Source of the DNA: Actinomycetes bacterium
GTDB lineage: Bacteria; Actinomycetota; Thermoleophilia; BMS3ABIN01
Reading direction: 5' to 3'
Assembly (NCBI GenBank): GCA_021785935.1
Contig: JAJYOG010000007.1
Location: 417 to 64,416 of the forward strand
DNA length: 64,000 nucleotides
Part shown: positions 745 through 50,869 of the stretch, in pieces
Layout of the letters: each line of letters begins with the position of its first letter
Numbering within the stretch: the stretch's first letter is position 1
Program-made: the position numbers and the translations under genes
The notes under the pieces: model-generated
Databases searched by the model: none
The model's input: the letters and a program-made list of their open reading frames with translations, nothing else
What the model was told of the DNA's origin: nothing

Positions 745-1004
745 ATTAAAACCGGGACGTTTCTAACATCATTGCTGCCACGTCCTGGCCAGGATACGAA
801 GAAGCTCACCGTTATTCGTGTGTGTAGCCCACTAAACTATCTCACGCTTCGGCAGATAGAGACCTGCAAGTTTCGCCAGCAAAACTATGGCTCTTTCGCG
901 GCGCTCTTGGCACTTCCTCAAATCCGCTTTCGTAATCCACAAGGCTTCTCGGATCAGGAGCAAGGTGAACATTCTGTTCGGCTAACGTATCTGTGATTAT
1001 TCTT

Positions 1005-1646: not shown

Positions 1647-1696
1647 GCTTTTTCAGGATACCCCATGAAACAGCTCGCCCCGAAGACACCCCATGC
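1630..1696. repeat. Three direct repeats GA(C/T)ACCCCATG at 1630-1640, 1657-1667 and 1686-1696 (27/29-bp spacing)
   Basis: Read directly. They overlap the start of the hypothetical gene and extend into the non-coding stretch preceding the IS110 transposase. Possible regulator binding sites or IS subterminal repeats. Confidence 0.35.
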
Positions 1697-3350
1697 ATTA
1701 ACCATTGAAATTCTCCGATTTTCTATTTAACGGGATCGGAGTTTCTTCAACAATCATGCTTACGGAGATTCTAAGTGGAATATTTCTAGGGTTAGTGACC
1801 AGCTACGCTTTTTGGCATGCGGGACGGAATAAAAGCTGATAAGTTCGAATCCCCTATGGTGTCACGATTTCGGGCATAAAAAAAATGATGAAATGGACTC
1901 CCCCCTCACTTCGGCGGCATCAATGTGCCAAAGTGGTAAATTCTTACCACTTGTCGGCGAGGAGAAAGGAGCCCAACATGGAGGTTACAACCACAGGTCT
2001 CGATCTGGCAAAAAATGTTTTTCAGGTGCACGGTGTGGATCGAAGAGGAAAGACGGTGCTTAGGAAACGGCTGACCAGGAACAAGGTACCCCCCTTTTTT
2101 GCCAATTTAAAGCCCTGCCTGATTGGCATCGAGGCCCAGGGATCAAGCAACCACTGGGCCAGAGAGCTCATAAGGCTGGGACACGAAGTAAAGATAATGA
2201 GTCCCCAGTTTGTAAAGCCCTACATAAAGAGTTCGAAGAACGATCAAAACGATGCCGAAGCCATCTGCGAGGCAGTAAGCCGGCCAAGCATGCGCTTCGT
2301 GCCGCTCAAGAGCATCGAGCAGCAGGACATACAGATGCTGCACCGCATCCGCGAGCTTGCGGTAAAAGACCGAACTGCCAAGGCTAACCAGGCAAGAGGC
2401 CTATTGGCTGAATACGGTATCGTGATTCCTCGGGGAATCACTCGCTTAAAGAAAGAGATGCCGCGTATCTTAGAGGATGCCCAAAACCAGCTTACGCCCT
2501 TCGCCAGAGAGCTGTTTTTGGATCTCTACCATCAGCTAATGGATCTGGATACCGTGGTTAGGGAATACGACCAGAGGATCCTGAAGGAATTTAAAAATAA
2601 TCCAACCTGCCAGAAACTTAGCCAAATTGCCGGCGTGGGACCGCTTACCGCCACAGCCGTGATGGCCAGCGTGGGAGATGCTTCCAGCTTTAAAAATGGC
2701 CGACAGCTATCCGCCTGGCTGGGCCTGGTTCCCCGGCAGCACTCCAGCGGCAACAAAAAGAGGCTCCTGGGAATCAGCAAACGCGGCAACAGTTACCTAA
2801 GAAGCCTGCTGATACATGGTGCACGCGCGGTGGTGCGTCATTCAGACGGCAAAGACGATCCAGCCAGCCGCTGGTTAAACGGCGTCAAGGCCCGTCGCGG
2901 CACCAATCGGGCCACGGTGGCGCTCGCTAACAAGAACGCTCGTGCCATATGGCGGCTGTTAAGAGATGATGTCGAAGCGCAAACAGTTTAAGTTAAGGAG
3001 GTTTCCTTCCAGGGATTGCTCTTGAGGTTCCATTGACGGCAAAACAGGTCGGACCGGCGCCTTCAGAACCTGATTAAGCCATTGGCCTTTTTTAGGCCGT
3101 AAAATGATGAGGCGGAGGCGCGCAGATTCCATCAGGGCCAGAGGATTTAGTTCCTCACTAACAGGCCGGATATATGACTGCAATCCAAACCCAGCTTGCC
3201 AGGAATCTCTTGCATAACGGGAGGAGTCCATATATGGCTTAACTAAGCCATTCCTGAGGGGTAATAAGTTGGTGGACCTTATCGGGTTCGAACCTGAAGC
3301 CTTGGATGTCTTAGTGGACCTCTCCTGAAACGGCTGCATTTCAAATTCCC
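1650..3350 (+). mobile_element. IS110-family insertion sequence (transposase plus long non-coding flanks); boundaries not determinable from sequence alone
   Basis: Contains a DEDD-type IS110-family transposase. The 330-bp upstream and roughly 360-bp downstream non-coding flanks are typical of IS110/IS1111 elements, which lack terminal inverted repeats. The exact ends are not visible without a second copy or an empty site. Confidence 0.45.
1978..2991 (+). CDS. IS110-family transposase
   Basis: N-terminus MEVTTTGLDLAKNVFQVHGVD (the GIDxxK-like start of IS110 transposases). C-terminal LSQIAGVGPLTATAVMASVGDASSFKNGRQLSAWLGLVPRQHSSGNKKRLLGISKRGNSYLR is the conserved IS110 C-domain. The ATG at 1978 is preceded by AGGAGA. 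The ORF-track start at 1885 is probably too far upstream. Confidence 0.85.
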   Translation: MEVTTTGLDLAKNVFQVHGVDRRGKTVLRKRLTRNKVPPFFANLKPCLIGIEAQGSSNHWARELIRLGHEVKIMSPQFVKPYIKSSKNDQNDAEAICEAVSRPSMRFVPLKSIEQQDIQMLHRIRELAVKDRTAKANQARGLLAEYGIVIPRGITRLKKEMPRILEDAQNQLTPFARELFLDLYHQLMDLDTVVREYDQRILKEFKNNPTCQKLSQIAGVGPLTATAVMASVGDASSFKNGRQLSAWLGLVPRQHSSGNKKRLLGISKRGNSYLRSLLIHGARAVVRHSDGKDDPASRWLNGVKARRGTNRATVALANKNARAIWRLLRDDVEAQTV

Positions 3351-3358
3351 GATAAAAT

Positions 3359-3384
3359 CAGGGCCCGCCGGAGGCGGGCCCTGA
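3359..3384 (-). terminator. Rho-independent terminator hairpin closing the dsr operon (CAGGGCCCGCC-GGAG-GGCGGGCCCTG)
   Basis: Perfect 11-bp GC-rich stem about 80 nt downstream of the dsrL stop on the minus strand. It is followed on that strand by ATTTTATCGGGAATTT. Confidence 0.55.
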
Positions 3385-3398
3385 TTGAGTACTATTTT

Positions 3399-3461
3399 CC
3401 TAATTAGTATTGTGTCCCCAAAACTGGGGTGCTAATTAGTATTGTGTCCCCGAAATGGGGG
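3399..3461. repeat. Two direct copies of CTAATTAGTATTGTGTCCCC(A/G)AAA(C)TGGGG; each forms a CCCC-N5/6-GGGG hairpin
   Basis: Read directly at 3399-3431 and 3432-3461, between the dsrL stop (3462) and the terminator hairpin. The GTATTGTGTCCCCGAAAT core recurs at the murC start (32896-32921) in the opposite orientation relative to the + strand. Confidence 0.5.
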
Positions 3462-5150
3462 TTATCCCATATTGATGTAGCCGCAGGGGCATTCTTCGGC
3501 GCACTTGGCGCAGCCGACGCATACCTCAAGCCGGAACTTGTAGGGATTGCCGTTCTCGTCCCGCTCTTCCAGCTTCTTGACCGCGCTGTAGGAACAGAAT
3601 GAGTAGCAGTTGCCGCAGTCGAAGCACTTGCCGCAGCTCATGCAACGGTTGGACTCTTCAATGGCCTGCTCGTTCGACCAGGTTGACACAACTTCGTTAA
3701 AGTTGCTGGCTCGCTCGCCCGCATCCATAACGTTCTTCTCGCCACGCGGGGCTTCCGCGTAGTAGTTGAGCGCCATCTGGTCGGACTTGATTAGCTTGGG
3801 CGGAAATTCCTTGGGAATCTCTTCGCCGCGGACGTGATAGTCGATGGCGGTCGCAGCCTTGCGGCCCAGGCCGATAGCCTCGGTGACCGTACCGAGATGG
3901 TTGGTGACATCGCCGCCGGCGAAGATACCCTCTTCGGTGGTGGCGCCGGTAGCTTCATCAACCGTAATCCAGCCCTTTTCGTCCTTGAAGGTGTCGAGGC
4001 CTTCCATCTGCGGACCCTGGCCGATTGCCGGCAGGACCATGTCGCAGTCGATGACGAACTCGGAGCCCGCTACAGGCTCGGGACGCCGGCGGCCGCTGTC
4101 ATCCGGCTCGCCAAGCTCCATCTTGATGCACTTAAGACCCGTGACCTTGCCGCCGTCACGAACGATCTCGACCGGAGCGGTCAAGTACTCGATGTTGATG
4201 CCCTCTTCGAGGGTGTCATCGATTTCCTCTTCCTCAGCAGGCATCTCCTCGCGGGTACGCCGGTAGATGATCTGTGAATCAGCGCCCATTCTCTTGGAGG
4301 TACGGGCGGCGTCAACGGCGCTGTTACCGCCGCCGATGACCAGGACTTTCTTGCCCTTGACGTCGATATCTGCGCCGGACCTGAAACTATTCAGGAATTC
4401 GACGGCGCTCATCACTCCTTCACCTTCTTCGCCCGGAATTCCCAGAGCCCAGCCCTGGTGCGCGCCGATGGCGATATAGATGGCGTCATAATCCTTCTTG
4501 AGGTCGTCCATGGAAACATCCGAGCCTACACGGGTTCCAGTCTTGATGTCGACTCCCAGGTCAGCGATTGCCGCTACCTCGGCATCGAGGATGTCCTCCG
4601 GAAGGCGATAGCTCGGAATACCATACCGAAGCATACCGCCGGTCTTGTCGAAGGCTTCGAACATGGTCACACCATAGCCGCGCCTGGCAAGCTGGAAGGC
4701 GCAGGAAAGGCCGGCCGGTCCGGAGCCGATGACTGCTACCTTTTCTTTCTTGGCGTCATCGCTGATCTTCTCATGCTTGAGGCTGTGCTCGAGCGCGTAA
4801 TCGCCGAGGAAACGCTCGACCTGGTTGATCGATACCGCGCCTTCCTTGGCGTTACGGTTGCAATCCGTCTCGCAGAAATGCGGACAGACGCGGCCGATAA
4901 TCGCCGGGATCGGGTTGGTCTCAGTCAGCGTGCGCCAGGCCTGCACGTACGATTCATCGTACTCACGCTTTAGCATTTCTGACTGTGCGATCGTTGTCAG
5001 AAATCCGCGTATATCGTTACCGCTGGGGCAGGCATTCCTGCAGGGCGGCGTTTTTTCCACGTAAGCCGGCCGCAGGTGCGAACCCTCGCCGCCGCGGCTA
5101 TAACTGGCGGCGCCAATTTCCCGCTTTCTTGTCTTTAACACTACTGCCAT
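3462..5150 (-). CDS. dsrL: DsrL-like NAD(P)H:acceptor oxidoreductase (GltD-like FAD/NAD(P) protein with N-terminal Cys cluster and C-terminal 2x[4Fe-4S] ferredoxin domain)
   Basis: 562 aa. Two dinucleotide-binding motifs (VAVIGSGPAGLSCA; KVLVIGGGNSAVD). N-terminal CRNACPSGNDIRGF...CPHFCETDC. C-terminal CMSCGKCFDCGNCYSFC...CVGCAKCAEECPCG. Glutamate-synthase small-subunit-like core plus ferredoxin tail immediately after dsrABD is the DsrL architecture. Confidence 0.6.
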   Translation of the reverse strand: MAVVLKTRKREIGAASYSRGGEGSHLRPAYVEKTPPCRNACPSGNDIRGFLTTIAQSEMLKREYDESYVQAWRTLTETNPIPAIIGRVCPHFCETDCNRNAKEGAVSINQVERFLGDYALEHSLKHEKISDDAKKEKVAVIGSGPAGLSCAFQLARRGYGVTMFEAFDKTGGMLRYGIPSYRLPEDILDAEVAAIADLGVDIKTGTRVGSDVSMDDLKKDYDAIYIAIGAHQGWALGIPGEEGEGVMSAVEFLNSFRSGADIDVKGKKVLVIGGGNSAVDAARTSKRMGADSQIIYRRTREEMPAEEEEIDDTLEEGINIEYLTAPVEIVRDGGKVTGLKCIKMELGEPDDSGRRRPEPVAGSEFVIDCDMVLPAIGQGPQMEGLDTFKDEKGWITVDEATGATTEEGIFAGGDVTNHLGTVTEAIGLGRKAATAIDYHVRGEEIPKEFPPKLIKSDQMALNYYAEAPRGEKNVMDAGERASNFNEVVSTWSNEQAIEESNRCMSCGKCFDCGNCYSFCSYSAVKKLEERDENGNPYKFRLEVCVGCAKCAEECPCGYINMG

Positions 5151-5246
5151 ACGTTTCTCCTTTTCTCAGGCGTCATCGCACCTAATGATCAAGAGCTTAT
5201 TAATTGTCTATCGCCCGGTGCGGTTTCGCCTAAGCGACATCTCTGA

Positions 5247-5492
5247 TTATTCGTTAGCAGAGCCTTCCACACGCGGCATCTCGATTGAGCTTCCGCCAAA
5301 GTAACCGTACACGCACCGGCCTGAGTCGATGAGCGACTTGATGGCGGCCTTTGTGTCCGCTCGGGGCACATCGCCGTACTTTTCCTTCATCGCCTTGGTG
5401 AGATCGCCGGCCTTGAGTTTTTTCTGGCCAGCCGAGCTGGAGACGAGTTCGAACATATCATCAGCCAGTTGCTCAATAGTGACATCAGCCAT
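5247..5492 (-). CDS. dsrD: DsrD, small winged-helix protein of reductive dsr operons
   Basis: 81 aa, Lys-rich, directly downstream of dsrB. The CVYGYFGGSSIEM motif resembles the conserved YxxGSTTMY region of DsrD. Confidence 0.75.
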   Translation of the reverse strand: MADVTIEQLADDMFELVSSSAGQKKLKAGDLTKAMKEKYGDVPRADTKAAIKSLIDSGRCVYGYFGGSSIEMPRVEGSANE

Positions 5493-5506
5493 TGTTACAG
5501 GACCTC

Positions 5507-6583
5507 CTAATATCTGTTGTGTAGAGACCTTCTGTAAGTTGTGCCGGCGTGACGGAAGTCATCGAGGTGATACTTGGTGAACTCGATGCCGGTAATATCG
5601 AAGAACTTCTCCCAACCGATGCGGTTGATCCATTCGCCGACACGCTCGAACGGACGGGCGTTATCGGCATAAAGCTCGACGATATTCTTGACCGCGCTTG
5701 TAACTTCCGGCCAGCGCGGTGGGTTATTCGGCAGGTACGGGATAGCCAGTTTGGTGAACATCGGTTCCGTCCTGGCGTTGGAGATCTTGCCGCCAACCCA
5801 GATGGAGACACCATCGTTAAGTGGATCCGCCAGTGGCATCGCCGGGCAGACGGTGAAACAGTTACCGCAGTACATGCATTTGTCCTCATCGACCTTGACC
5901 GTGGTCTTGCCTTCGATCGAAGTCGGGCGGATGGCGTTGTTCGGGCACGAGGCAACCGTGGTCGGGATCTCGCACTGGTTCGGCAACGTATTGTTGTCGA
6001 TCCGCGGCGGCGTGCGGTGCAAGCCGAGGATGGCGATGTCCGAGGCGTGGACGGCGCCGCACATGTTCAGGCAGCAAGCCACAGCCACGCGCAGTTTGTG
6101 CGGCAGCTTCTCGGATGTGAAATACTCTGCCAACTCGTCCATAACGGCCTTGACCAAACCGGAAGCGTCAGTCGCGGCTGAATGGCAGTGTACCCAACCC
6201 TGGGTGTGGACCACGTTGGAGATGGCGTTGTTGGTGCCGCCTACCAGAGTGCCCATAGCGTTCAGGTCTTCAATCAGCGGATCGATGTTCTCGCTTTTCT
6301 CAAGCAGAAACTCGACGTTGTTGCGGCTGGTAAAACGGAAATAGCCGTCGCTGTACTTGTCCGCCAGGTCCATGATGTTCCTGAGGAAGTTGATGCTCAC
6401 AAGCCGCGGCGAAGCACAACGCACCGTGTAAATGGTGCCCGCGGGGCCGGTATGGGACAGCACGCCCGGCTTGATTGAGCCGTGAACTTCCCACTTGCCA
6501 TAATTGGCCTTGATCATCGGATGCAGGAACTGATCATAATGCGGCGGTCCGATATCAGTTACTCTCTTTGCTTCAGTCGCCAT
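5507..6583 (-). CDS. dsrB: Dissimilatory sulfite reductase beta subunit
   Basis: 358 aa. N-terminal RVTDIGPPHYDQFLHPMIKANYGKW and ferredoxin insert CMYCGNCFTVCPAMP are typical of DsrB. Lies directly downstream of dsrA. Confidence 0.9.
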   Translation of the reverse strand: MATEAKRVTDIGPPHYDQFLHPMIKANYGKWEVHGSIKPGVLSHTGPAGTIYTVRCASPRLVSINFLRNIMDLADKYSDGYFRFTSRNNVEFLLEKSENIDPLIEDLNAMGTLVGGTNNAISNVVHTQGWVHCHSAATDASGLVKAVMDELAEYFTSEKLPHKLRVAVACCLNMCGAVHASDIAILGLHRTPPRIDNNTLPNQCEIPTTVASCPNNAIRPTSIEGKTTVKVDEDKCMYCGNCFTVCPAMPLADPLNDGVSIWVGGKISNARTEPMFTKLAIPYLPNNPPRWPEVTSAVKNIVELYADNARPFERVGEWINRIGWEKFFDITGIEFTKYHLDDFRHAGTTYRRSLHNRY

Positions 6584-6630
6584 AAAAACTAACCTCCTGT
6601 TACTGTCAAAGTTGACTTAAGATCGCGTGA

Positions 6631-7839
6631 TTATTCCTCGCTGGCTGACGCGCCCTCTTCTTCGTAATACTCTTCATAGAAGATGTAGGGATTGTCTCTC
6701 GGAGCCTTGACCATCTTCGGTGACGCTTCGAGACCGACGCCCTCGAGGAAGGTGGCGAGACTGATGCGCTCGATGAACTCGCCAATACGCTCGCGAGCGG
6801 TGCCGTACTCATCCCAGAACTCCCAGATGCGCTCGATCAGATCGTGCAGCTCTTCGAAGTCATTATCCTCACACTTCATGAAGGGGATAATTACCGAGCC
6901 GAACAGCGCGCCCTCGACGATCGGGGCCTTGGCGCCGAGTGTGACCGCGAAGCCCTTGTCGTCGCCGACGGCCAGTGCGCCCGGCAGGCGATTGATGCAG
7001 TGCATGCACTTGACGCAGTTGCTGTTGTCGATAGTGATTTCCTTGCCATCGACCGAGATGCAGCTGGTCGGGCAGAGATCGACGACGGCGCCCTGAATGT
7101 CCATGCCCTTGTCTACGAACTCAGCGAACTTGGCCTGGTCAACCTTGATGTCATCCTTCCAGATGCCAATGAGACCCATGTCCGAACGCGCGATAGCCGC
7201 GGTGCAGTCATTGGGGCAACCGGAAGCCTTGATTTTGTACTTGTAGTTGAACATGGGACGGTGCAGCTCGTCCTGATAGCTCTTGGTCAGGTCGTAGGTT
7301 ACCGCCAGAGTGTCGAAACAGGCGTTCTCACAACGGGCGGGGCCGACGCAACAGCTGGGTGTACGAAGGTCGGACCCGGAACCGCCAAGGTCCCAGCCCT
7401 TCTCCGTCAGAGCCCGGAAGATGGGCTCGAGCTCTTCGGTGCGGGTTCCAAGAAGGACCATGTCACCGGTGGAGCCGTGCATGTTGGTGAGGCCTGAACC
7501 GTGTTCTTCCCAGATGTCCAGGATCTCACGCAGGGCGCTAGTGGTGTAGAACCAGCCGGACGGCTGATTTACACGCACCGTGTGAAAATGCGATACGCCG
7601 GGAAACTCTTCCGGCAGGGCTGAATAACGGCCGATGACGCCACCGCCATAACCCATGACGCCGACGAGGCCGCCGTGTTTCCAGTAGCCACGCTTGTCCT
7701 CGTAGGACTTTTCCAGCTGACCCAGAAGGTCCCTGCACATCTCGGACTTGTCAGCGCAACTCTTTATGTCCGTGACGAAACTGGGCCAGGGTCCCTTTTC
7801 CAACTCATCAAGGAGTGGAGTCTTGAGATCGTCTGCCAT
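6631..7839 (-). CDS. dsrA: Dissimilatory sulfite reductase alpha subunit
   Basis: 402 aa. N-terminus [20 protein letters not shown] is the hallmark DsrA start. Also [17 protein letters not shown] and a ferredoxin domain ([28 protein letters not shown]). Confidence 0.9.
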
Positions 7840-7911
7840 TCCTGCTCTCCTTTACTTTGATTGCGTTTGAATGATTCGGATTAACTCTATTTCAGGCTCG
7901 TCTGAAAAATT

Positions 7912-9183
7912 TCAGGCCTGTGCGCCTTCCGGCAGACCCTCCACCGGACCGACGCCCTCTTCTTCCACAGGTACTTCTTCAACTGCCTCCTCATGCACTG
8001 GCTTGACGAAAATTCCTTCGACTGGCATCAGCGGCAACAGTTTCAGTCCTAGCAGGTAAATAAATCCAATCAGAGCAAAAATGCCTGCAAACTGAATCCA
8101 TTCAATCAACCGCGGGATATACGTGACGGTTATGCCATCCTGAAAGCCACTGGTTAGTTCATAGCCGGGCATGATCGGTTGCGCCAACACCTGTCCGGGG
8201 AGGATGAAAAGCATACGCTCGCCGAGGACGCCGATTATGTGACAGGCCGAGGCTCCCAGGATCCAGTTGAGCTTGTTTCTCGTGCCTGGATTGAACAGGA
8301 TGAAAGCCGGTATCAGCAACCCGACCAGATACAGCTGCACCCAGAAGACGAAAGTGAAGAAGTTGCCGCCGAACATGACAAACTTCTCGCCAAACTGGAA
8401 TTCGGGATCGTACAAATGCGTCAGATGCTCGATAGTAACCAGGTAGAACACGAAGATGATCAGAGCCAGCATGATCTTCGACAGCTGCAGGAAGAAACGG
8501 GTGTCGATCTGACGTTTGGTGTATTTAAAGGTGAAGTAAAGCATAATCATCGCCAGCGCCGTTCCCGAGGAAAGGGCCGCGATTACAAAAGCCAGCGGCG
8601 TGATTGATGAGAAGTACATGTCACGGCCGTTGATAATACCGAAGATGAAGCCGGTGCCGGAGTGCACAAAGACGGCTGCGATGACCGCCATCGTCCCCAT
8701 GACATTGGTCCAGCGCTCGTTCTCCTTGAACTGGGCCCAGAGGTAAAGCACGCCGATTGTCATGTAACTCATGTAGATGAATGCGTTCAGCGAAAGCAGC
8801 GAACGCGGGTTAACCATGTAAAACGGCAGGAAGATCCTGTCGGGACGGCCCCAGCCGCCAATGAGTGCGGCGAGCGCTCCCACCATGAACAGCACCGAGT
8901 TAAAGGCGGCTACCCGTGACAGAACCTTGTATTCCTTTTGTTTGAAGATAACGGCGAGACCGGAAATCATTAGCGAACCAGCGCTGAGTCCAACAAAAAG
9001 AACGAAAATAACTTTGTCTCCGGCCCAGGTAACTGAATTGCTCATACCTGTCAGATAGTAACCCTTGACGAACCTGACCAGAGTGGCTACCAGCCATCCA
9101 AGCACCAGTCCGCCGCAGATCGCGGTGGCGACCCAGAAACTTCCACTCTTTCCTTCTATCCTCGAGAAATAGTATTTTGCCAC
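7912..9183 (-). CDS. dsrP: DsrP, NrfD/PsrC-family integral membrane quinone-interacting subunit of DsrMKJOP
   Basis: 423 aa, about 10 predicted TM helices, NrfD-like. Positioned between dsrO and dsrA. Confidence 0.8.
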   Translation of the reverse strand: MAKYYFSRIEGKSGSFWVATAICGGLVLGWLVATLVRFVKGYYLTGMSNSVTWAGDKVIFVLFVGLSAGSLMISGLAVIFKQKEYKVLSRVAAFNSVLFMVGALAALIGGWGRPDRIFLPFYMVNPRSLLSLNAFIYMSYMTIGVLYLWAQFKENERWTNVMGTMAVIAAVFVHSGTGFIFGIINGRDMYFSSITPLAFVIAALSSGTALAMIMLYFTFKYTKRQIDTRFFLQLSKIMLALIIFVFYLVTIEHLTHLYDPEFQFGEKFVMFGGNFFTFVFWVQLYLVGLLIPAFILFNPGTRNKLNWILGASACHIIGVLGERMLFILPGQVLAQPIMPGYELTSGFQDGITVTYIPRLIEWIQFAGIFALIGFIYLLGLKLLPLMPVEGIFVKPVHEEAVEEVPVEEEGVGPVEGLPEGAQA

Positions 9184-9226
9184 TACGACCTCTCAGTCCC
9201 GAAAGTAGACACAGATTTAATAATGA

Positions 9227-10024
9227 TCATCCCAGCACCTTCTCGAGGGCGGCTTCATTTTTCGACAAGCCCATGTAGAACACGTTTGGCTTGACCTCGA
9301 GGTTGGGCCTCAGCACCTGAACATTGCCGTCGGCTATCTGCCTGGCGACCTTCTCTTTATGGTCGTTGCGATTGCCGAAAGTAAGCGCCTTATGCGGACA
9401 CGCCTCAACACAGGCAGGAAGTTCACCGGCATCAAGGTCCTTGTGGGCGCAGAAAGTACACTTGGTCGCGACACCCAGCATCATGGCCGGCACCTTTTTA
9501 TTCTGCTCGTCGCGAGGCGTCGGGTTGTCACGGAAAACAATAGTCCTGGCCCGGTATGGACAGGCGATTACGCAGTAACGGCAGCCAATGCAACGATGCT
9601 CGTCGATAAGGACGATTCCGTCTTTTTCACGCCGGAAAGATGCCTTGGTCACGCAGACATGCACGCAGGGAGGATCAATACAGTGCTGACAGAGCAAGGG
9701 TAACGGGCGTTCTTCGGCGCCAGGCAGGTCCTGCTTCATCTCAGCGACCCGGATCCAGTACGGTGTGTAGCGCTTGGCGTCCTCGCCATAAACAGCTTCC
9801 AGGTCGGGCACGTTGTTTTCTTCCCGGCAAGCCTGCTCACAGACCTTGCAGCCGTTGCACTTGTTAAGGTCAACGGTCATGGAATACTGCATCTGGCTGG
9901 TGGTTGCCGACGAAGCCATGGAGGAGGTAACCAGCAACTGGGACGCAGGCATGGCCGCACCCGCGGCGGCTATCAAACCGCCGAGCTTAAGAAACGTCCT
10001 TCTGTCCATTCCTTCATTTGCCAT
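9227..10024 (-). CDS. dsrO: DsrO, periplasmic Tat-exported 4x[4Fe-4S] ferredoxin-like subunit
   Basis: 265 aa. Twin-arginine signal MDRRTFLKLGGLIAAAGAA. Multiple CxxCxxCxxxCP motifs. Confidence 0.85.
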   Translation of the reverse strand: MANEGMDRRTFLKLGGLIAAAGAAMPASQLLVTSSMASSATTSQMQYSMTVDLNKCNGCKVCEQACREENNVPDLEAVYGEDAKRYTPYWIRVAEMKQDLPGAEERPLPLLCQHCIDPPCVHVCVTKASFRREKDGIVLIDEHRCIGCRYCVIACPYRARTIVFRDNPTPRDEQNKKVPAMMLGVATKCTFCAHKDLDAGELPACVEACPHKALTFGNRNDHKEKVARQIADGNVQVLRPNLEVKPNVFYMGLSKNEAALEKVLG

Positions 10025-10078
10025 CTTATAACCTTTTCTCCCTTGGTTTTATTGCCCGCAAGGCGCTATAGCCGGGGG

Positions 10079-10507
10079 TTACTGGACTCCTCTTGGCCGG
10101 AAAGATGCCGGCTGATCCTCAGTTGAGTGACAGCCGCCAGTCTTATCCATGCAGCCAGGCTCAACGCCGTTGTACTTGTGACACTCCGCACAGAAATCTT
10201 CATACTTGTGACAGCTGAAGCAGCGCTCAATGGTCAGACGCTGCATCTTGTCATTGTGGAGGCCCTCCCTGACTATCTGAACGCGAGCATCCTTTAGTTC
10301 TTTCATATGATTGACACGCATATAATTTTTGGTCTCTTCCCTTGTGCCTCCAACGGGCTCAACGCATCTTACCGCGTCAGAATCGGTGCCCTTGGTCAGG
10401 TCGGGCTGGGCTTCAGGACTGAAGATCTTGCCGCTGGCGGCGTTCACTATTACCGGCGAGGCCAGAACAAGCAGAAAGACGATGGTTGCGATAACGGCCT
10501 TTTTCAT
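10079..10507 (-). CDS. dsrJ: DsrJ, periplasmic triheme cytochrome c
   Basis: 142 aa. Signal peptide MKKAVIATIVFLLVLASPVIVNA. Three heme-binding motifs (CFSCH, CAECH, CMDKTGGCH). Start overlaps the dsrK stop. Confidence 0.85.
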   Translation of the reverse strand: MKKAVIATIVFLLVLASPVIVNAASGKIFSPEAQPDLTKGTDSDAVRCVEPVGGTREETKNYMRVNHMKELKDARVQIVREGLHNDKMQRLTIERCFSCHKYEDFCAECHKYNGVEPGCMDKTGGCHSTEDQPASFRPRGVQ

Positions 10508-12084
10508 TCTTTTGCTCCCAGTTCGATGGCGTTGGCAATAAGCTGGTGGACGCCGCCGGCTACATTCATGGGCACATCATATTTGGGAAGGATCTTGGTG
10601 AACTGCGCCTTGCAAATTGCGCAGATAAGAGCGAGGAAGTTGACGCCGTGCGTCTCCTGAACCTTGCTGAATGCCTGCATGCGGGGCATTGCTCCCTGAA
10701 CGCGAAGCTCGAGCAGATCGTCGGTCAAAAGGCCGCCGCCACCGCCGCAACAGAAGGTCTTCTCCATAATGGTTTCCTCATCCATCTCCACGTAGCGGTT
10801 GCAGCTGGCTTTGATCAGATCGCGCGGGGTGGTGAACTGCCCGCCGGGTTTGTCACCCATCCTGGCTCCACGGGCCACATTGCATGAGTCATGCATGGTG
10901 ACCACGAATTCATCGTTCTGTGACTTGTCGAGCTTGATGCCGCCTCGATTCACCAGGTCGAGCGTGAATTCGCAAATATGTTGCGGCCTCTTGAAGTTGG
11001 GATCAAGCGTATCGAAGGGGCCGATGAGGGTATTCCAGAAGGAATAGGCAATCCTCCAGGCGTGGCCGCACTCGCCGACGATCAGGCGCTTGGGCTTGAT
11101 CTCCGCGATCGCGTTTTTGACGCGCGTCGCCACTTTTTGCATCTGGCCGTAATTGCCAATGAACATGCCGAAATTGCCGGCCTCGGAAGCTGTGGAGCTG
11201 AACGTCCAGCTGATTCCGGCCTGGTGAAATACCTTGGCGTAACCGAGAAGCGATTCCACGTGCGGCGAAGCGAAAAAGTCCGCCGACGGTGTTACCATGA
11301 GCACTTCAGCGCCTACCTCATCCAGGGGAAGCCGGATCTTTTGGCCGGTCTCCTCCTCGAGATCTTCTTCCGTCGACTCAAGAGTCGCCTTGAGCGCCTT
11401 GGGGTTCATTCCCAGGTTGTTACCAATGTCGTGAACCTTGGCGATGATGTCGTTTGTGTACTTCTGGCCGACACCGATGTGATCCATGATCTCGCGCGCC
11501 GCCATTGAAATCTCGGCGGTATCGATGCCGTAGGGGCAAAATACCGAGCAGCGGCGGCACTGGGAGCACTGGTGGAAGTAGCTGTACCACTCGCCCAGCA
11601 GATCGAGGTCGAATCTTTCCGCGCCGGCGATCTTGCCAAGGATTTTACCTTCGGTCGTGAAATATTTGCGGTAAACCTTGCGGAACAGCTCGGCGCGCGC
11701 CACAGGCATGTTCCGGCCATCCTGCGTGCCAATAAAATAGTGGCATTTGTCGGTACAGGAGCCGCACTTGACGCAAATGTCCATGTAGACCTGGAGCGAC
11801 TTGTACTTCTTGAGCAGCTCGGCCATCTTGGCGATGGCGGCGTCATGCCAGTCTTCACGCAGATCACCGGGGAAGCCCAGCTTCTCCATTGATTCTGACT
11901 TGCAGAGATATGGCTTGTGATTGGCAACGTCGCGCTCAACATGCGGTATCTTGATCTGCCCGGTAAGCTCATCGCCGTGGACGTCCTTTGGCTTTTTGCG
12001 CTCAGCCTTGGGCTCACCGACCTTTTCGAGGTCAGTTAAAACTTTTGGTTCTTCTTCGGTTACTGCTGCCTCATTGTCTGCCAT
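10504..12084 (-). CDS. dsrK: DsrK, cytoplasmic HdrD-like catalytic subunit with CCG domains and FeS clusters
   Basis: 526 aa. CxxCxxCxxxC motifs (CVKCGSCTDKCHY; CSQCRRCSVFCPYG) and a Cys-rich CCG-like C-terminal half (FCCGGGGG). Sits between dsrC and dsrJ. Confidence 0.85.
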   Translation of the reverse strand: MADNEAAVTEEEPKVLTDLEKVGEPKAERKKPKDVHGDELTGQIKIPHVERDVANHKPYLCKSESMEKLGFPGDLREDWHDAAIAKMAELLKKYKSLQVYMDICVKCGSCTDKCHYFIGTQDGRNMPVARAELFRKVYRKYFTTEGKILGKIAGAERFDLDLLGEWYSYFHQCSQCRRCSVFCPYGIDTAEISMAAREIMDHIGVGQKYTNDIIAKVHDIGNNLGMNPKALKATLESTEEDLEEETGQKIRLPLDEVGAEVLMVTPSADFFASPHVESLLGYAKVFHQAGISWTFSSTASEAGNFGMFIGNYGQMQKVATRVKNAIAEIKPKRLIVGECGHAWRIAYSFWNTLIGPFDTLDPNFKRPQHICEFTLDLVNRGGIKLDKSQNDEFVVTMHDSCNVARGARMGDKPGGQFTTPRDLIKASCNRYVEMDEETIMEKTFCCGGGGGLLTDDLLELRVQGAMPRMQAFSKVQETHGVNFLALICAICKAQFTKILPKYDVPMNVAGGVHQLIANAIELGAKE

Positions 12085-12178
12085 TTAATTCTTGTCCTTT
12101 CGGATACCAAAAGCGCCGTGTCGGCACTGAAAAGTAGCCTCATCTGCTTTCCGAACGAAGAAATTATCGCCCGCCCCT

Positions 12179-12231
12179 CACAAAAAACAGGACGGAGGCC
12201 GGCCGCACCGGAATCTGCCCGGCCGGCCTCC
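12179..12231 (-). terminator. Intrinsic terminator/attenuator immediately downstream of dsrC (GGAGGCCGGCC-N16-GGCCGGCCTCC followed by GTCCTGTTTTTTGTG on the minus strand)
   Basis: Read directly: an 11-bp perfect GC stem plus a T6 tract on the coding (minus) strand, about 30 nt after the dsrC stop and upstream of dsrK. Confidence 0.6.
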
Positions 12232-12263
12232 GGTTTATACGCCCTAAAAAACGACTGGCTGGT

Positions 12264-12596
12264 TTAGACGCAGCCGGTCGGTTTCGGGAGCCCGGCGATT
12301 TTGCAAGCCTGGAGGGCCGGACCCGCCGGATAAAGGTCATACAGATAAGCGCTGTTGCCCTTTTCCGGACCGAACATTTTCTTCATTTCCTTGATCAGGA
12401 TCTTGATGGCGGGAGCGATGTTGTACTCCGCGTAGTAGTTGCGCAGGAAGTTGACAACTTCCCAGTGGGCTTCGGTCATCTCAACGCCCTCGAGATCGGC
12501 GATGTAGTTGGCTACATCCTCATTCCACTCGTCGAGGTTGATAAGATAGCCATCGTCATCCGTCTCATAGGTTTTGCCATTAATCTCAAAGCTCAT
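12264..12596 (-). CDS. dsrC: DsrC, sulfur-carrier/co-substrate protein of DsrAB
   Basis: 110 aa ending ...ACKIAGLPKPTGCV, the diagnostic C-terminal arm with two conserved Cys. AGGAGG RBS 7 nt upstream of the ATG. Confidence 0.9.
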   Translation of the reverse strand: MSFEINGKTYETDDDGYLINLDEWNEDVANYIADLEGVEMTEAHWEVVNFLRNYYAEYNIAPAIKILIKEMKKMFGPEKGNSAYLYDLYPAGPALQACKIAGLPKPTGCV

Positions 12597-12635
12597 TTTC
12601 CATTTCCTCCTGTTTCGTTGTGACTTTTCTATTTA

Positions 12636-12940
12636 TTTCCCGGGCGAATGATGATCCGTGCTCCCGGCCTTCGTTTCCCGGGAACTGATTATTCCTTACC
12701 CGGACTTTCATTTCCCGGGGACATGATTATTCGTGTCCCTGGACTTTCATTTCCCGGGGACATGATTATTCGTGTCCCTGGACTTTCATTTCCCGGGGAC
12801 ATGATTATTCGTGTCCCTGGACTATATTGAGAGCAGCTTGCTCGCTGGAGCGCCTCTCACTAAACCTTTTATTTCCCCGAGAATAGGTCGTATCCCGGGA
12901 AATTCGTTCCCCGGGGACATGATCATTCGTGTCCCCGGAC
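12636..12940. repeat. Tandem array of about 6 hairpin-forming ~39-bp units (GGACTTTCATTTCCCGGGGACATGATTATTCGTGTCCCT) in the dsrM-dsrC spacer
   Basis: Three identical 39-bp units at 12702-12740, 12741-12779 and 12780-12818. Degenerate units at 12636-12669 and 12670-12705. One further copy at 12907-12940, ending 5 nt from the dsrM stop. Each unit contains the inverted repeat GGGGACA-N10-TGTCCC(C/T). Confidence 0.85.
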
Positions 12941-12945
12941 TCTAC

Positions 12946-13716
12946 TTATCCGGATGCTTCCATTGCCTCTTCCGCTACCGGCGTAGGCTCGGGCTGACCG
13001 CCCTCAGCCCACGGAGCTACTATCCGTTTCTCGCGGGGGTTATCCACCTGGTTGCGGGTCGGGCTGAAGAAGAGGCCCGCAGCGTGCATCAGCTTGCTGA
13101 AGGGAAAATAGGCCAGCAGCAACAAAACCAGACTGAAGTGGATGATAAAAATCGGCTGAGTGGGAAAATCGGCCGGCTTGAAAGCAACCAGGCCCATCAT
13201 GAAATCCTTGACCTGGGCAATGTCGACGCGGAAAAAGTGCTTGGCCAGGCTGCCGGTGCCGGCGATGGCGATCAGCAGGACAAGGAGGAAATAATCGGTC
13301 ATGACCGAGATGAACATGGTGCGGTCGACGATCAGTCTTAGCAGGAACAAAAGGCCAAGGCCGCCCAGCATGATCAGGCCCGGGTACATCTCGAAGGTGT
13401 CGATATAAGCGAGTGCTTCGGGAACGCTGGCGAATACAAAACGGTAATGCTTCACGAGGGCAAGAAGCAGACCAATATGGAAAACATAGCCGGCCAGCCA
13501 GATTACACGGTTACTCTTGAAAAGGCTTTTAAAGAGGACAACTTCGGAGAGGATTCTGGTCGGAACGCCTGAGGCCGTAACGGGCGCCGGAGTCTGCGGA
13601 ATCTTGAGCGGCGCCGGCGTTGACCCGTACTTCCATACCTTGGCGAGAACGCCTACAAGAAAAATTGCAATGGCTGCATACCCGAGAATCGCGAATAATG
13701 CTGTCAAACCGCTCAC
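12946..13716 (-). CDS. dsrM: DsrM, NarI/HdrE-like dihaem b membrane subunit
   Basis: 256 aa, 5-6 TM helices, NarI-like. Lies upstream of dsrC/dsrK. Confidence 0.75.
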   Translation of the reverse strand: MSGLTALFAILGYAAIAIFLVGVLAKVWKYGSTPAPLKIPQTPAPVTASGVPTRILSEVVLFKSLFKSNRVIWLAGYVFHIGLLLALVKHYRFVFASVPEALAYIDTFEMYPGLIMLGGLGLLFLLRLIVDRTMFISVMTDYFLLVLLIAIAGTGSLAKHFFRVDIAQVKDFMMGLVAFKPADFPTQPIFIIHFSLVLLLLAYFPFSKLMHAAGLFFSPTRNQVDNPREKRIVAPWAEGGQPEPTPVAEEAMEASG

Positions 13717-13943
13717 ACCTCTTCCCTTTTGACTGGAGAGTTTTACACTCTACGGACTGACCTGGAAAGGAAAACCGCCCTAAATCCACCCTGGATTAAA
13801 GAGGCCCCCACCCTATACCCCCCGGAGCATTCGCAAAGATATCACCTGGTCCGGAATGTGTCAAACGAAAAGAGACAAATCCGCCCGCCCGGCGCGGCGC
13901 GCCCGCAATGATACCGTAGAGGGTATACGGAGTAAGAGAAAAT

Positions 13944-15341
13944 CTACACCCGTTTGAAACCCATGTCAATAGAGTTATCAGGTTTTTTTACGAAGTCCAC
14001 GAACCCCTCCGCCCAGCCCGGTGAGCCAAGGCTGTGCAGATGGGTATAGGAGGCAAGAACGTTCTTGTAGAGGATGCCGTCATGGACCTTGTCGACGCCG
14101 GAGCCCCGGAGGACCCGGTAAGCGAATGCAGTCCTGGCGGTATCGAGGCCAACTACTTCGGAGTAATGAAATTCGTGGCCGCGGATCTTGAGGCCCGGCC
14201 CGAACCAGTTGCCGGCGCCGGTTGCCTCGAGTTCCATGTAGCCGTGGCCCCTGGGTTTTTCGTGCATAAGGATTTCGCAGGGCAGGGCTCCAACCATCTG
14301 CCGGTTTTCACCCTCCCAGGCCATGGCGCCGGACAGATACATCAGGCCGCCGCACTCGGCATAGACGGGCATCCCGTCCTCAACAGCCGCCTTGATCTGA
14401 ACGCGCAGCGAGGCATTCGCTTCCAGCTCTCGCATGAAGACCTCAGGGAAACCGCCGCCGATGTAGAGGCCATCGACGCTGGGCAATTCTTCGTCCGCCA
14501 GCGGACTGAACGGCAAGAGTTCAGCGCCGGCCGCCCTAAGCGCTTCGAGGTTCTCGGGATAATAAAAAGTGAAGGCGCGGTCCTGGGCTACGCCCAGCCT
14601 GATGACCGGAGCCGGGTGTTTGGCCGTGGCTACATCCAGATCCGGCAGGGGCGGCGCCGCTTCGGCTATCGCCCGCACGCGGTCCAGATCGACGCTCTCG
14701 CTGATGATACGTTCGATCCGTTCGATTATTTCTAACGAACCCGGGGCTTCGCGCGCCGGCTGCAGGCCAAGATGGCGCTGGATGATGCCGATCTCGGGAC
14801 GGCGCCTGATAGCGCCAACCACTTCGATGTCGCAGTAACGCTCGAGCACCTTGCGCAGCTTGTCTTCATGCCTGGGTCCGGAAACCTTGTTGAGGATAAC
14901 TCCGGCGATATTGATGTCGGGTTCGAACCGGGTAAATCCCTGAACCAGCGGAGCGATCGAGCGGGTCATGTTGCGCGTGTTTACCACCAGGATGACCGGC
15001 GCCGACAACTGCCGGGCCAGATCCGCGGTGCTGCCCCTGCCTTCGACATCGATGCTGTCGAAAAGACCCATGTTTCCTTCGACCACCGCGATCCCGGCGC
15101 CGGCGCCGTTGCGGCAGACGGATTTCAGGATCTCCTCATCCCCCATCATGAACTGATCGAGATTACGGCAATCGCGCCCGCTGGCGGAAGCCAGCCACAT
15201 GGGATCGATGAAATCCGGGCCTTTCTTGAATGGCTGCACGGTCAGGCCTGTACGCGCCAGCGAAGCGCAGAGGCCGATGCTGACGGTGGTCTTGCCCGAG
15301 CTGCGGTGGGGCGCGGAAACGATTAGTCTGGGAAGACGCAT
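13944..15341 (-). CDS. dsrN: DsrN, cobyrinic acid a,c-diamide synthase (CbiA)-like amidotransferase (siroheme amidase)
   Basis: 465 aa. N-terminal P-loop ATPase domain (VSAPHRSSGKTTVSIGL) plus C-terminal glutamine amidotransferase domain (AECGGLMYLS). CbiA-like and adjacent to dsrM. Confidence 0.8.
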   Translation of the reverse strand: MRLPRLIVSAPHRSSGKTTVSIGLCASLARTGLTVQPFKKGPDFIDPMWLASASGRDCRNLDQFMMGDEEILKSVCRNGAGAGIAVVEGNMGLFDSIDVEGRGSTADLARQLSAPVILVVNTRNMTRSIAPLVQGFTRFEPDINIAGVILNKVSGPRHEDKLRKVLERYCDIEVVGAIRRRPEIGIIQRHLGLQPAREAPGSLEIIERIERIISESVDLDRVRAIAEAAPPLPDLDVATAKHPAPVIRLGVAQDRAFTFYYPENLEALRAAGAELLPFSPLADEELPSVDGLYIGGGFPEVFMRELEANASLRVQIKAAVEDGMPVYAECGGLMYLSGAMAWEGENRQMVGALPCEILMHEKPRGHGYMELEATGAGNWFGPGLKIRGHEFHYSEVVGLDTARTAFAYRVLRGSGVDKVHDGILYKNVLASYTHLHSLGSPGWAEGFVDFVKKPDNSIDMGFKRV

Positions 15342-15386
15342 CGATCCCTCCGCAAAAAAACGGTTATATGAGACGCTGCTTGTTTT

Positions 15387-16841
15387 TCATTGTGTGCGTG
15401 CATCGAAACTCTGCAGAATCCTCAGGTTGTCTTTGGCATCCTGATATTCAGGATTAATCCGTAAAGCTGTCTGATACTTTTCGAGTGCTTTGTCAAAATG
15501 AGATTCAGCCTTGTATATATTACCCATGATATTGTGCGCCTCAAAATCCAAGGGATCCAGCTCAACATCCTTGCTAAAAGCGGCAATGGCGTCATCATAG
15601 CGATTAGTCATGACGTAGTTCACGCCAATATTGTAATAAGCTCTGGCATAGCCCGGGTCTGTTTGTACTACCTGCATGAATTCGCCCAGCGCCTTGGACA
15701 GCTGGCCACGCTGCTGATAGATGGCACCCAGATTGTTGTGTGGCCTTGCCTTGCCCGGGCTCTTGGCGGCGGTATCCGCCCAGAGAGTTGCCGGGTCGCG
15801 CCAGACGTTGTTTCTGGCGTAGGTTGCTCCCGCCAGGGTGACGGCTATCAGCGCCGCCAACAGTATTACACTCTTGTTGAGCCAGGGAAACCTCCGGGGA
15901 AATATGTCATTCAGCCTGAAGATGCCCGCCGCGGCTAGCGCCCCCACCGCCACGATCAGTCCGATCGAGGGAAGATAGAGCCTGTGCTCAAAGATCACAT
16001 CCGCGATCGGGATTACGCTCGATTCTACGGCCAGAGTGATAAAGAACCAGAAGATGCCGAAGGCCGCAAGCCTCATCAGCGGAGGGCCATTCTTTTTTCC
16101 GGAACGGATGAAGAGGAAGACGCCCAGCGCCGCTATGGCCGCAAGCAGAAGGAAAGACGCGATGACGTTGGGATTAAAGAAAGAGCTATAAATCGGATAG
16201 TCGTAATCAAAATTCTGGCCCACGGGGAAGAAGAAGAGCCGCAGGTAGGTGACGACAACTCGTAGCTGGGTGAAAAAGTAATCGGGGATCGATGGCGGCG
16301 CTGTCTCGCCCTCCGCTGATAGGGTCGGCATATTGCTGGTGAGCCGGCTTAAGGGGATGAGCGGCAGCGCCAGGAAAAAGGGCGCCAGGTTAATCAGGCG
16401 GCGCTTGATCTTTCCCGTAAAGAACGAGAACTCGGTGAGCACCAGTATGATTGGCAGAGTGAAGGCGATCTCCTTGGTGCCGAAGGCCAGCAGCGCCGCA
16501 AGGATCGAAACGCTGTAGGGGACGACCCTTCCGTAGACCGGAGCCGGCGCCTTCCCTTCAGCTTCTGCATCAGCCGCCGTCAGCCTCCACTTAACGAAAG
16601 CAACGAGGGAGAACAGGTAAAACATCGTCGCCAGGGAGGTGAACCTCTGGACCGCGTAGGTGACCGCCTGGGTCTCGATGGGATGAACGGCGAAGATGAG
16701 GCCGGCAAAGAGGGCCAGGAGCAGCGGCCAGGAGCCGGCCGCAGAACCGCCGCCTTCGACAGAACCTCCCTCGGAACCGTCTCCGCCCAGCCCGGCGCGA
16801 AAGAAAGGAGCCTTGAGCAGAAGCAGAACCAGGGCGAACAC
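15387..16841 (-). CDS. Multi-pass membrane protein with C-terminal TPR repeats (PMT/TMTC-like architecture); N-terminus uncertain
   Basis: 484 aa from a GTG. The same frame stays open upstream to 17249 (...RKTTIICLALVALAGLAAYSNTFKVPFEFDDLGTI...) without any ATG/GTG/TTG, so the true start is unclear. C-terminal TPR motifs (AYYNIGVNY; ALEKYQTALRINPEYQDAKDNL). Confidence 0.6.
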   Translation of the reverse strand: MFALVLLLLKAPFFRAGLGGDGSEGGSVEGGGSAAGSWPLLLALFAGLIFAVHPIETQAVTYAVQRFTSLATMFYLFSLVAFVKWRLTAADAEAEGKAPAPVYGRVVPYSVSILAALLAFGTKEIAFTLPIILVLTEFSFFTGKIKRRLINLAPFFLALPLIPLSRLTSNMPTLSAEGETAPPSIPDYFFTQLRVVVTYLRLFFFPVGQNFDYDYPIYSSFFNPNVIASFLLLAAIAALGVFLFIRSGKKNGPPLMRLAAFGIFWFFITLAVESSVIPIADVIFEHRLYLPSIGLIVAVGALAAAGIFRLNDIFPRRFPWLNKSVILLAALIAVTLAGATYARNNVWRDPATLWADTAAKSPGKARPHNNLGAIYQQRGQLSKALGEFMQVVQTDPGYARAYYNIGVNYVMTNRYDDAIAAFSKDVELDPLDFEAHNIMGNIYKAESHFDKALEKYQTALRINPEYQDAKDNLRILQSFDARTQ

Positions 16842-16987
16842 CAGTAGGGCCGTAGTGATATGAATCAGAAGATTGAGGATGTGATAGCCGGTAACCCCCA
16901 GCCCGCCTATCCTGTAATTGAGGGCGAAGGTGAGGAAGCCAACGATCCTCAGGTGGCTTGAGCTGTTAAAGACATTCTGAAAGCTTG

Positions 16988-50868: not shown

Positions 50869-50869
50869 C

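Follow-up and report, generated by a model that had tools for sequence, protein, structure and literature searches.

We analysed a 64,000-nt stretch of DNA from an uncultured Thermoleophilia-type actinobacterium (the window; positions 417 to 64,416 of contig JAJYOG010000007.1, assembly GCA_021785935.1), in which 11 consecutive minus-strand open reading frames (ORFs) fill positions 3462-15341 and make up a dissimilatory sulfite reductase (Dsr) gene cluster in the order dsrN-M-C-K-J-O-P-A-B-D-L. Gene identities were assigned by NCBIfam and Pfam profile searches of the ORF translations, in which the family-profile scores of the core genes were far above chance, with weaker matches for DsrJ and DsrP; only the 81-aa ORF described below had no direct family match. 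An earlier reading of this DNA, made from the letters alone (the sequence-only reading), had described a contiguous 11-gene cluster with these identities; the limits of the ORFs are exactly those it gave, and its gene identities all hold. From dsrK onwards the genes lie close together, with a 4-nt overlap between dsrK and dsrJ and gaps of 54 (J-O), 43 (O-P), 72 (P-A), 47 (A-B), 14 (B-D), and 96 nt (D-L); toward the head of the cluster the gaps are wider, at 227 (N-M), 349 (M-C), and 179 nt (C-K).

The first gene, dsrN (13944-15341), encodes a CobB/CbiA-type glutamine-dependent a,c-diamide synthase (TIGR00379 cobB, 474 bits against a cutoff of 261, 4.7e-142; Pfam CbiA and GATase_3), which its context suggests is a siroheme amidase, and a homologue takes the same first place in over 20 related loci. 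The protein scores equally as CobB and CfbB, and its substrate cannot be read from the sequence. All five subunits of the membrane complex DsrMKJOP are present with their cofactor motifs, DsrJ being the one that departs from the norm. DsrM (12946-13716) is a NarI-type membrane cytochrome b subunit with about five hydrophobic helices (Pfam Nitrate_red_gam; NF038037 DsrM, 170 bits, 4.8e-50); DsrK (10504-12084) is a catalytic HdrD-like iron-sulfur subunit with two CxxCxxCxxxC motifs and a CCG motif (NF045796, 556 bits against a cutoff of 400, 6.9e-167); DsrJ (10079-10507) is a periplasmic cytochrome c anchored in the membrane by a hydrophobic N-terminus and carrying two CxxCH motifs and one CX6CH (NF038038, 60 bits, 3.1e-16); DsrO (9227-10024) is a ferredoxin-like subunit exported by the twin-arginine translocation system, with a twin-arginine motif, RRTFL, from residue 8 (NF045797, 231 bits against a cutoff of 200, 1.2e-68); and DsrP (7912-9183) is an NrfD-type integral membrane, quinone-interacting subunit with about eight hydrophobic helices (Pfam NrfD 1.1e-39; NF045798 DsrP 1.3e-20). 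Between dsrM and dsrK lies dsrC (12264-12596; TIGR03342 1.1e-47; Pfam DsrC 4e-45), the product of which ends in ...ACKIAGLPKPTGCV, with both conserved cysteines of the C-terminal arm, one of them the penultimate residue, by which DsrC is told from TusE and RspA. The unusual site in DsrJ falls within residues 96-127, where CMDKTGGCH (CX6CH) replaces the third CxxCH of Acidobacteriota and other lineages; CX6CH is conserved among Thermoleophilia-type proteins, two related loci (L021 and L023) have CX9CH, and the short J-like proteins of four others (L006, L008, L016, and L017) have only two sites.

The sulfite reductase itself is encoded by dsrA (6631-7839; TIGR02064, 558 bits against a cutoff of 393, 7.5e-168), of the reductive bacterial type, and dsrB (5507-6583; TIGR02066, 479 bits against a cutoff of 342, 7.8e-144). 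The sequence-only reading had pointed to a DsrAB phylogeny as the means of telling a reductive from an oxidative enzyme, and in a DsrB-rooted neighbour-joining tree DsrA falls on the reductive side: it belongs to a 100%-supported Actinomycetota clade, which sits in a group (79% support) with DsrA of Desulfobacterales, Archaeoglobus, Acidobacteriota, and Nitrospirota, while the second ("oxidative") dsrA copies of related metagenome-assembled genomes (MAGs) lie outside that group. The same 79% group contains the first DsrA of the Gaiellales bacterium SURF_19 (locus L010, 10001-11173), which joins the window DsrA with the reductive references. Diao et al. 2023 called this SURF_19 protein reductive (PMC10591310), and our placement agrees with theirs and conflicts with one sentence of Löffler et al. 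2020.

The last gene of the cluster, dsrL (3462-5150), encodes a 562-aa NADPH-binding iron-sulfur flavoprotein that, by its domains, motifs, and phylogenetic position, is a DsrL of type 2, in the Arg variant that probably corresponds to DsrL-2C. By the definition of Löffler et al. 2020, a DsrL is the product of a complete gene in a dsrAB-bearing organism that has a defined domain order and no pyruvate- or ketoisovalerate:ferredoxin oxidoreductase genes as neighbours, the order being an N-terminal two-[4Fe-4S] domain, a flavin adenine dinucleotide (FAD) Rossmann fold with an embedded NAD(P) Rossmann fold, a linker, and a C-terminal two-[4Fe-4S] ferredoxin (PMC7596348). The 562-aa protein shows all of this: its Pfam domains run Fer4_20 (33-122), Pyr_redox_2 (137-427) with an embedded Pyr_redox (268-339), and Fer4_7 (508-557), and its gene is flanked upstream by the dsrD-like gene and downstream by a terminator and an IS110 element. 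The full length of the protein is matched by NF009410 (638 bits, cutoff 516), its AlphaFold2 (AF2) model is confident from residue 28 on, and its linker has about 60-80 residues, compared with the about 100 stated by Löffler et al. 2020. Typing by the NADP-specificity motif, also put forward by the sequence-only reading, gives DsrL-2: the YRR motif of the NAD(P)-binding domain, which is found in DsrL-2 and not in DsrL-1 (PMC7596348), is present as Y296-R297-R298 and is near-invariant across 43 homologues. The DsrL-2 of Desulfurella amilsii is NADPH-specific in vitro (PMC7596348), and by analogy with it the YRR motif predicts NADPH as the donor, so that the direct NAD(P)H coupling first suggested for this cluster would hold in that form.

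An alternative account of this gene is that it encodes a general NADPH oxidoreductase of the NfnB/SudA/GltD or Stn kind that merely adjoins the dsr genes. The YRR motif does not speak against this, as it is common to NfnB and GltD and thus splits type 2 from type 1 rather than DsrL from its relatives, and the closest solved folds are indeed the GltD-like modules of the NfnABC and StnABC large subunits (PDB 9bov, 9n5u, and 8oh5; template modelling (TM) score 0.79-0.80, normalised to the query, over the whole model), together with NfnB and NfnI-L (4ylf and 5jca), the TM score for the NfnB core being 0.67. Features common to these proteins and DsrL are the binding sites for FAD and NADPH, the YRR motif, and the iron-sulfur ligands of the N-domain, and the large subunits of Stn and NfnABC also share a post-flavin RCxxCG segment. 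They differ in belonging to transhydrogenase complexes with other partners, whereas DsrL carries a C-terminal two-cluster ferredoxin domain, missing from NfnB and GltD, and lies next to dsrAB. The two groups separate by neighbour joining on 405 columns of the flavoprotein core (100 bootstraps), with the PDB-aligned segments of NfnB, NfnI-L, NfnA, and StnC plus Escherichia coli GltD as outgroups: the window DsrL joins 67 other DsrL-like proteins in a clade, supported by 100% of bootstraps, that excludes Thermotoga maritima NfnB, Pyrococcus furiosus NfnI-L (formerly SudA), NfnA, the NfnABC/StnABC large subunits, and E. coli GltD, and the grouping with GltD, NfnB, or SudA by which the sequence-only reading would have given up its assignment did not appear. 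Members of this clade comprise 58 proteins encoded beside dsrAB in the loci fetched for comparison and 10 close database homologues, and the two of the latter that were checked (P0100 and P0120; 54-55% identity, from other phyla) were both dsrAB-adjacent. Adjacency of dsrL to dsrAB(D) is kept across Actinomycetota, Acidobacteriota, Nitrospirota, Chloroflexota, and others, and there is no NfnA, StnAB, or GltB partner gene near dsrL in the window. Taken together, these observations make the general-oxidoreductase account very improbable, and we treat the protein as DsrL.

Inside the DsrL clade, the window protein and the first SURF_19 DsrL-2 belong to an Actinomycetota subclade (100% support) apart from the copies linked to oxidative DsrAB, in a tree that contains no DsrL-1 or named reference sequences. 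The Arg variant is recognised by an S24-x-L-R27-P motif, in which Arg27 is invariant in our alignment; all C-terminal cysteines are present as well. Arginine in place of cysteine at the position of NfnB Cys42 marks the DsrL-2 of organisms with reductive DsrAB (PMC7596348), and the DsrL copies that stand beside oxidative-type dsrAB in related MAGs have cysteine at the Arg27 position; the equation of Arg27 with NfnB Cys42 was taken from the published alignment, its placement being ambiguous in our own MAFFT alignment.

A further point concerns the architecture of the protein. Residues 479-506 of DsrL (ERASNFNEVVSTWSNEQAIEESNRCMSC), which end in an invariant RCMSCG, align with the N-terminal stretch that bears Cys39 and Cys42 in NfnB, NfnI-L, and GltD, even though in DsrL they lie after the flavin domain, in a well-modelled region (predicted local distance difference test (pLDDT) 88-96 in AF2), while residues 1-24 are modelled as disordered (pLDDT <50). 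The same post-flavin segment is found in the Stn and NfnABC large subunits, and the invariant Cys503 and Cys506 are in excess of the eight cysteines that a two-cluster ferredoxin needs. Tentatively, and with more doubt than confidence, we raise the idea that DsrL and the Stn/NfnABC large subunits are circular permutants of NfnB/GltD, in which Cys503 and Cys506 would be ligands 3 and 4 of the distal N-domain [4Fe-4S] cluster. Published proposals for the distal cluster of DsrL name Ser/Thr and Arg/Cys ligands, and the paper describing the Stn structure does not spell out the residues that bind it. If the permutation were real, the Arg-versus-Cys marker of reductive and oxidative DsrL-2 would need another interpretation.

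Between dsrB and dsrL lies a gene for an 81-aa protein (5247-5492), which we file as a divergent DsrD-like winged-helix protein on the strength of its position, its modelled fold, and a weak profile-profile match, so that the dsrD assignment of the sequence-only reading is retained in this qualified form. It begins 14 nt after dsrB, in the slot of DsrD in canonical sulfate reducers, and its length agrees with that of DsrD (about 80 aa); homologues occupy the same slot in dozens of loci from several phyla, with canonical DsrD in the Desulfobacterales and Archaeoglobus loci. An AF2 model, run with database homologues, has a pLDDT of 87.5 and an H-H-H-beta-beta winged helix. Such a fold would equally suit an unrelated winged-helix DNA-binding regulator: in a Foldseek search the top matches were Fur-family and Z-alpha domains, DsrD itself (1wq2_A, TM score 0.74 normalised to the target) came at rank 40 with many winged-helix proteins equal to it, and the fold is thus not specific to DsrD. 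Sequence searches with the protein returned no Pfam, NCBIfam, or PDB match, even at E <= 10, and a 10-sequence profile searched against the PDB likewise gave nothing useful. None of the 120 listed homologues (P0121-P0240) has a precomputed Pfam DsrD match, and those that are named are nearly all called "hypothetical protein". Profile-profile comparison by hhalign does connect the families: the 81-aa family aligns in register with canonical DsrD from the Desulfobacterales and Archaeoglobus loci (E 2.5e-4, probability 43%), its hairpin YGYFGGSS falling on the YWSSGSTT motif stated for Desulfobacterota DsrD (PMC8794893), and one of 10 family members reaches Pfam DsrD PF08679 at 1.1e-5. The counterparts of this gene in SURF_19 and in Thermoleophilia are moreover named dsrD in the literature (PMC7596348, PMC10591310). 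In view of the conserved slot and the in-register alignment, we consider an unrelated regulator decidedly unlikely and keep the DsrD-like assignment.

The presence of a DsrD-like protein, a reductive-type DsrA, and an Arg-type DsrL-2 in one cluster, all three read from sequence, points to reductive operation, that is, to sulfate or sulfite reduction or to the reductive branch of a disproportionation. Several features of the locus and of our analysis weigh against this reading. The scores of DsrM, DsrJ, and DsrP fall short of the NCBIfam equivalog cutoffs (300 bits for DsrM), and DsrJ has only two canonical CxxCH sites; the 81-aa protein lies under every curated DsrD threshold and lacks the YWSSGSTT motif; the trees are neighbour-joining only and contain no DsrL-1, Desulfurella DsrL-2, or canonical sulfur-oxidiser rDsrA references; and the mechanism set out below is drawn as a whole from characterised homologues, from which we infer its direction, the use of NADPH, activation by DsrD, and the transcript structure. 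The DsrL-2 class also occurs in established sulfur oxidisers (PMC7596348), and Löffler et al. 2020 placed both SURF_19 DsrA proteins, including the orthologue of the window DsrA, in the oxidative group (PMC7596348). These last two points would fit a cluster that runs oxidatively or switches direction, with DsrL-2 passing electrons from DsrAB to NADP+, as would the second, oxidative-type dsrAB-dsrL set that directly follows the cluster in six relatives (L006, L008, L010, L011, L016, and L017), accompanied in SURF_19 by dsrEFH. In the window, by contrast, neither dsrEFH nor a second dsrAB is present, the position being taken by the IS110 element; a DsrD-like gene stands within the cluster; DsrA groups with reductive references at 79%; and DsrL has arginine at the diagnostic position at which the copies adjoining oxidative DsrAB have cysteine. 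We therefore regard oxidative or reversible operation as unlikely, and conclude with a probability of roughly 85%, from sequence comparison, that the region is a complete Dsr gene set of an uncultured Thermoleophilia-type actinobacterium, in an order typical of its lineage, that is run reductively.

Within reductive operation, the sequence-only reading had confined the organism to sulfite reduction or sulfur disproportionation, which is narrower than the data allow: a full pathway, by a definition that includes Sat, AprAB, and Qmo, has been reported for Thermoleophilia and Aquicultoria MAGs (PMC10591310). Annotation of nearly all ORFs of at least 150 aa revealed no sat, aprAB, qmoABC, or dsrEFH in the window, and for this reason the window cannot tell whether the organism reduces sulfate or is confined to sulfite reduction or disproportionation.

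The spacing of the genes and the signals between them suggest how the cluster may be transcribed. On the minus strand at 13836-13969, in the 227-nt dsrN-dsrM spacer, are two sigma-70-like promoter matches (TTGACA-17-TAGATT and TTGACA-17-TATCTT, each 10/12); they are consensus matches only, and a scan of the region found 5 such sites where 6.9 were expected from shuffles, so that as a whole it shows no enrichment. Between dsrC and dsrK, a terminator- or attenuator-like hairpin (12181-12233, minus strand) consists of a 13-bp GC stem followed by the UGUUUUUUG T-run, and an equivalent hairpin of different sequence follows dsrC in nine of nine close relatives (L002, L003, L005, L007, L010, L021, L023, L025, and L080). 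Judged from its form and conservation, this hairpin may act as a terminator or attenuator, through which dsrC would be expressed independently of dsrKJOPABDL. The 96-nt dsrD-dsrL spacer contains no terminator-like structure, and dsrL is followed by an intrinsic terminator (3352-3386, minus strand) with a 14-bp GC-rich stem and then UUUUAUC (fold z-score -5.6; 0 of 200 shuffles fold as well). No known RNA was found by Rfam in 3000-17000 at E <= 0.1. From the gap sizes, the promoter-like sites, the hairpins, and the terminator positions, dsrL is expected to be co-transcribed with dsrABD and dsrC expression to be set separately, and transcription of the cluster is probably modular rather than that of one plain operon. 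The earlier statement that these genes share an operon accordingly agrees with the form of the dsrD-dsrL junction; for the cluster as a whole it is unproven, given the promoter-like sites before dsrM and the conserved hairpin after dsrC.

The dsrM-dsrC spacer (12597-12945) contains a hairpin-repeat array (12635-12945, minus strand) of about seven copies of a 39-nt unit, GGGGACA-N9-TGTCCCC. Tandem Repeats Finder reports a period of 39, 4.9 copies, and a score of 269, and the array includes three perfect copies (12715-12820) and one near-perfect copy, against none expected, the remainder being degenerate; its fold z-score is -4.6. Upstream of the array is a conserved block (GGTTWAGYGAGAGGCGCTCC...CTGCTCTC, with TAATATA after it in relatives) and downstream is the ribosome-binding site of dsrC, so that the array may sit in the dsrC leader. 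The number of copies varies: contig k141_870042 (L083), from an ENA metagenome, is 100% identical to the window over 12.7 kb with the sole difference of two fewer repeat copies (78 nt), and only one copy of the unit is present in L007 and L080, the nearest relatives. The 39-nt unit was not found elsewhere in the window, nor in loci other than these. A looser search with the GGGGACAC pattern adds only two short repeats after dsrL, which are direct copies, at 3400-3455 (minus strand) between the dsrL stop and the terminator, of an approximately 32-nt unit (CCCCAxTTxGGGGACACAATACTAATTAG) and share with the dsrC-leader repeats only the GGGGACAC core. We know of no earlier description of this regulatory anatomy around dsrC, that is, of the array and the conserved hairpin.

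The arrangement of the cluster, held to be unusual by the sequence-only reading, is not new. A "dsrNMCKJOPABDL-2" cluster was described in SURF_19 by Löffler et al. 2020 (PMC7596348), and DsrD together with DsrL-2C was reported in Thermoleophilia and Aquicultoria by Diao et al. 2023 (PMC10591310), so that neither the gene order, nor the DsrL-2C class, nor what DsrD and DsrL-2 do is new to the literature. The identical order recurs in at least eight other Actinomycetota MAG loci (L002, L003, L005, L007, L010 (SURF_19), L023, L025, and L080), and 15 further Actinomycetota loci show variant orders, among them N-C-M-K-J-O-P-A-B-D-L, N-M-C-K-J-A-B-D-L-rA-rB-L, and N-C-A-B-D-L. Among public sequences, the proteins most similar to those of the window belong to MAGs of Thermoleophilia and other Actinomycetota, with identities of 88% for DsrL and 89% for DsrA. 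With SURF_19 the window shares all eleven genes in the same order and orientation as well as an Arg-type DsrL-2, at identities of 49-93% (DsrA 81%, DsrC 93%, DsrL 66%, and DsrD-like 72%). The DsrL-2 of D. amilsii, which is from another phylum and was compared by its published description rather than by sequence, agrees with the window protein in its domain order, in its YRR motif, and in being associated with reductive DsrAB (PMC7596348). In SURF_19, as published, a PAS/GAF protein, dsrE, dsrF, dsrH, and a second dsrA come next, this dsrA being part of a second dsrAB-dsrL set of the oxidative type, whereas in the window dsrL is followed by the terminator, an IS110 transposase, and a HigBA-like pair, and dsrC is preceded by the expanded hairpin-repeat array.

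The two best-studied Dsr systems each resemble the window in part. In the sulfate reducer Desulfovibrio vulgaris Hildenborough, dsrABD, dsrMKJOP, and dsrC are at separate loci and dsrL is not known to occur; it shares with the window DsrAB, a DsrD encoded after dsrB, a two-Cys DsrC, and DsrMKJOP, and differs in having a DsrD with the YWSSGSTT motif and a match to Pfam DsrD, and a DsrJ with three CxxCH motifs. The sulfur oxidiser Allochromatium vinosum, with the order dsrABEFHCMKLJOPNRS, likewise has dsrC, dsrMKJOP, dsrL, and dsrN in one large cluster, and differs by its oxidative rDsrAB, dsrEFH, lack of a known dsrD, and other gene order. Its DsrL is of type 1A, which is longer, has no YRR, and prefers NAD(H) (PMC7596348).

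What lies immediately downstream of dsrL varies among relatives and includes many mobile elements (window 63-2991; L080 11720-20353; L010 14773-21173). In the window this position holds the IS110 transposase (1885-2991, plus strand) and a Gp49/HigB-like toxin with a helix-turn-helix antitoxin (63-744, plus strand); in L080, serine recombinase, HEPN/NTase, relaxase, and TraG-like genes; and in SURF_19, a PAS/GAF/HD sensor, dsrEFH, and the second dsrAB-dsrL. Upstream of the cluster are genes for tetratricopeptide repeat (TPR) proteins, beyond which lie housekeeping and cell-division (dcw) genes, and the rest of the window, by annotation of nearly all ORFs of at least 150 aa, contains only dcw, hdr/flx-like, mqn, and housekeeping genes and mobile elements. 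The hdr/flx-like set (45716-52425, minus strand) comprises hdrC, hdrB, and hdrA, then two iron-sulfur proteins and an NAD-binding, DHODB-type iron-sulfur protein, and its arrangement resembles the flx-hdr sets of sulfate reducers, for which a role in connecting NAD(P)H, ferredoxin, and DsrC has been proposed. Three futalosine-pathway-like mqn genes (two radical-SAM CofH/MqnC-type and one VitK2_biosynth) lie at 52698-55727 (minus strand) and are consistent with a menaquinone-dependent DsrMKJOP.

By analogy with its characterised homologues, the system would work as follows. DsrN would amidate the siroheme carried by DsrAB, which would reduce sulfite, with the sulfur ending up in a trisulfide formed on both C-terminal cysteines of DsrC. 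It is this trisulfide, and not DsrAB, that DsrMKJOP reduces in the current model, so that the description in the sequence-only reading, in which the membrane complex supplied electrons to DsrAB, was imprecise; here the complex would reduce the trisulfide to sulfide and regenerate DsrC, with DsrK as the catalytic subunit and DsrM and DsrP connecting it to the menaquinone pool. DsrL-2 would carry electrons from NADPH through FAD and its iron-sulfur clusters to DsrAB, and the winged-helix DsrD-like protein may act as an allosteric activator of DsrAB, an activity that has been shown for DsrD (PMC8794893). As for expression, dsrN would come first, the promoter-like region would then drive dsrM-dsrC, with the terminator- or attenuator-like hairpin after dsrC, and the tightly packed dsrKJOPABDL would be closed by the strong terminator after dsrL.

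The window thus adds one more well-assembled example of an actinobacterial Dsr cluster that combines a sulfite reductase of the reductive type with both a DsrD-like protein and a DsrL-2 predicted to use NADPH. Where Pfam or NCBIfam DsrD is used as a marker of reductive metabolism, automatic calls will miss this lineage, and the cluster supports the published view that dsrL is no marker of sulfur oxidation.

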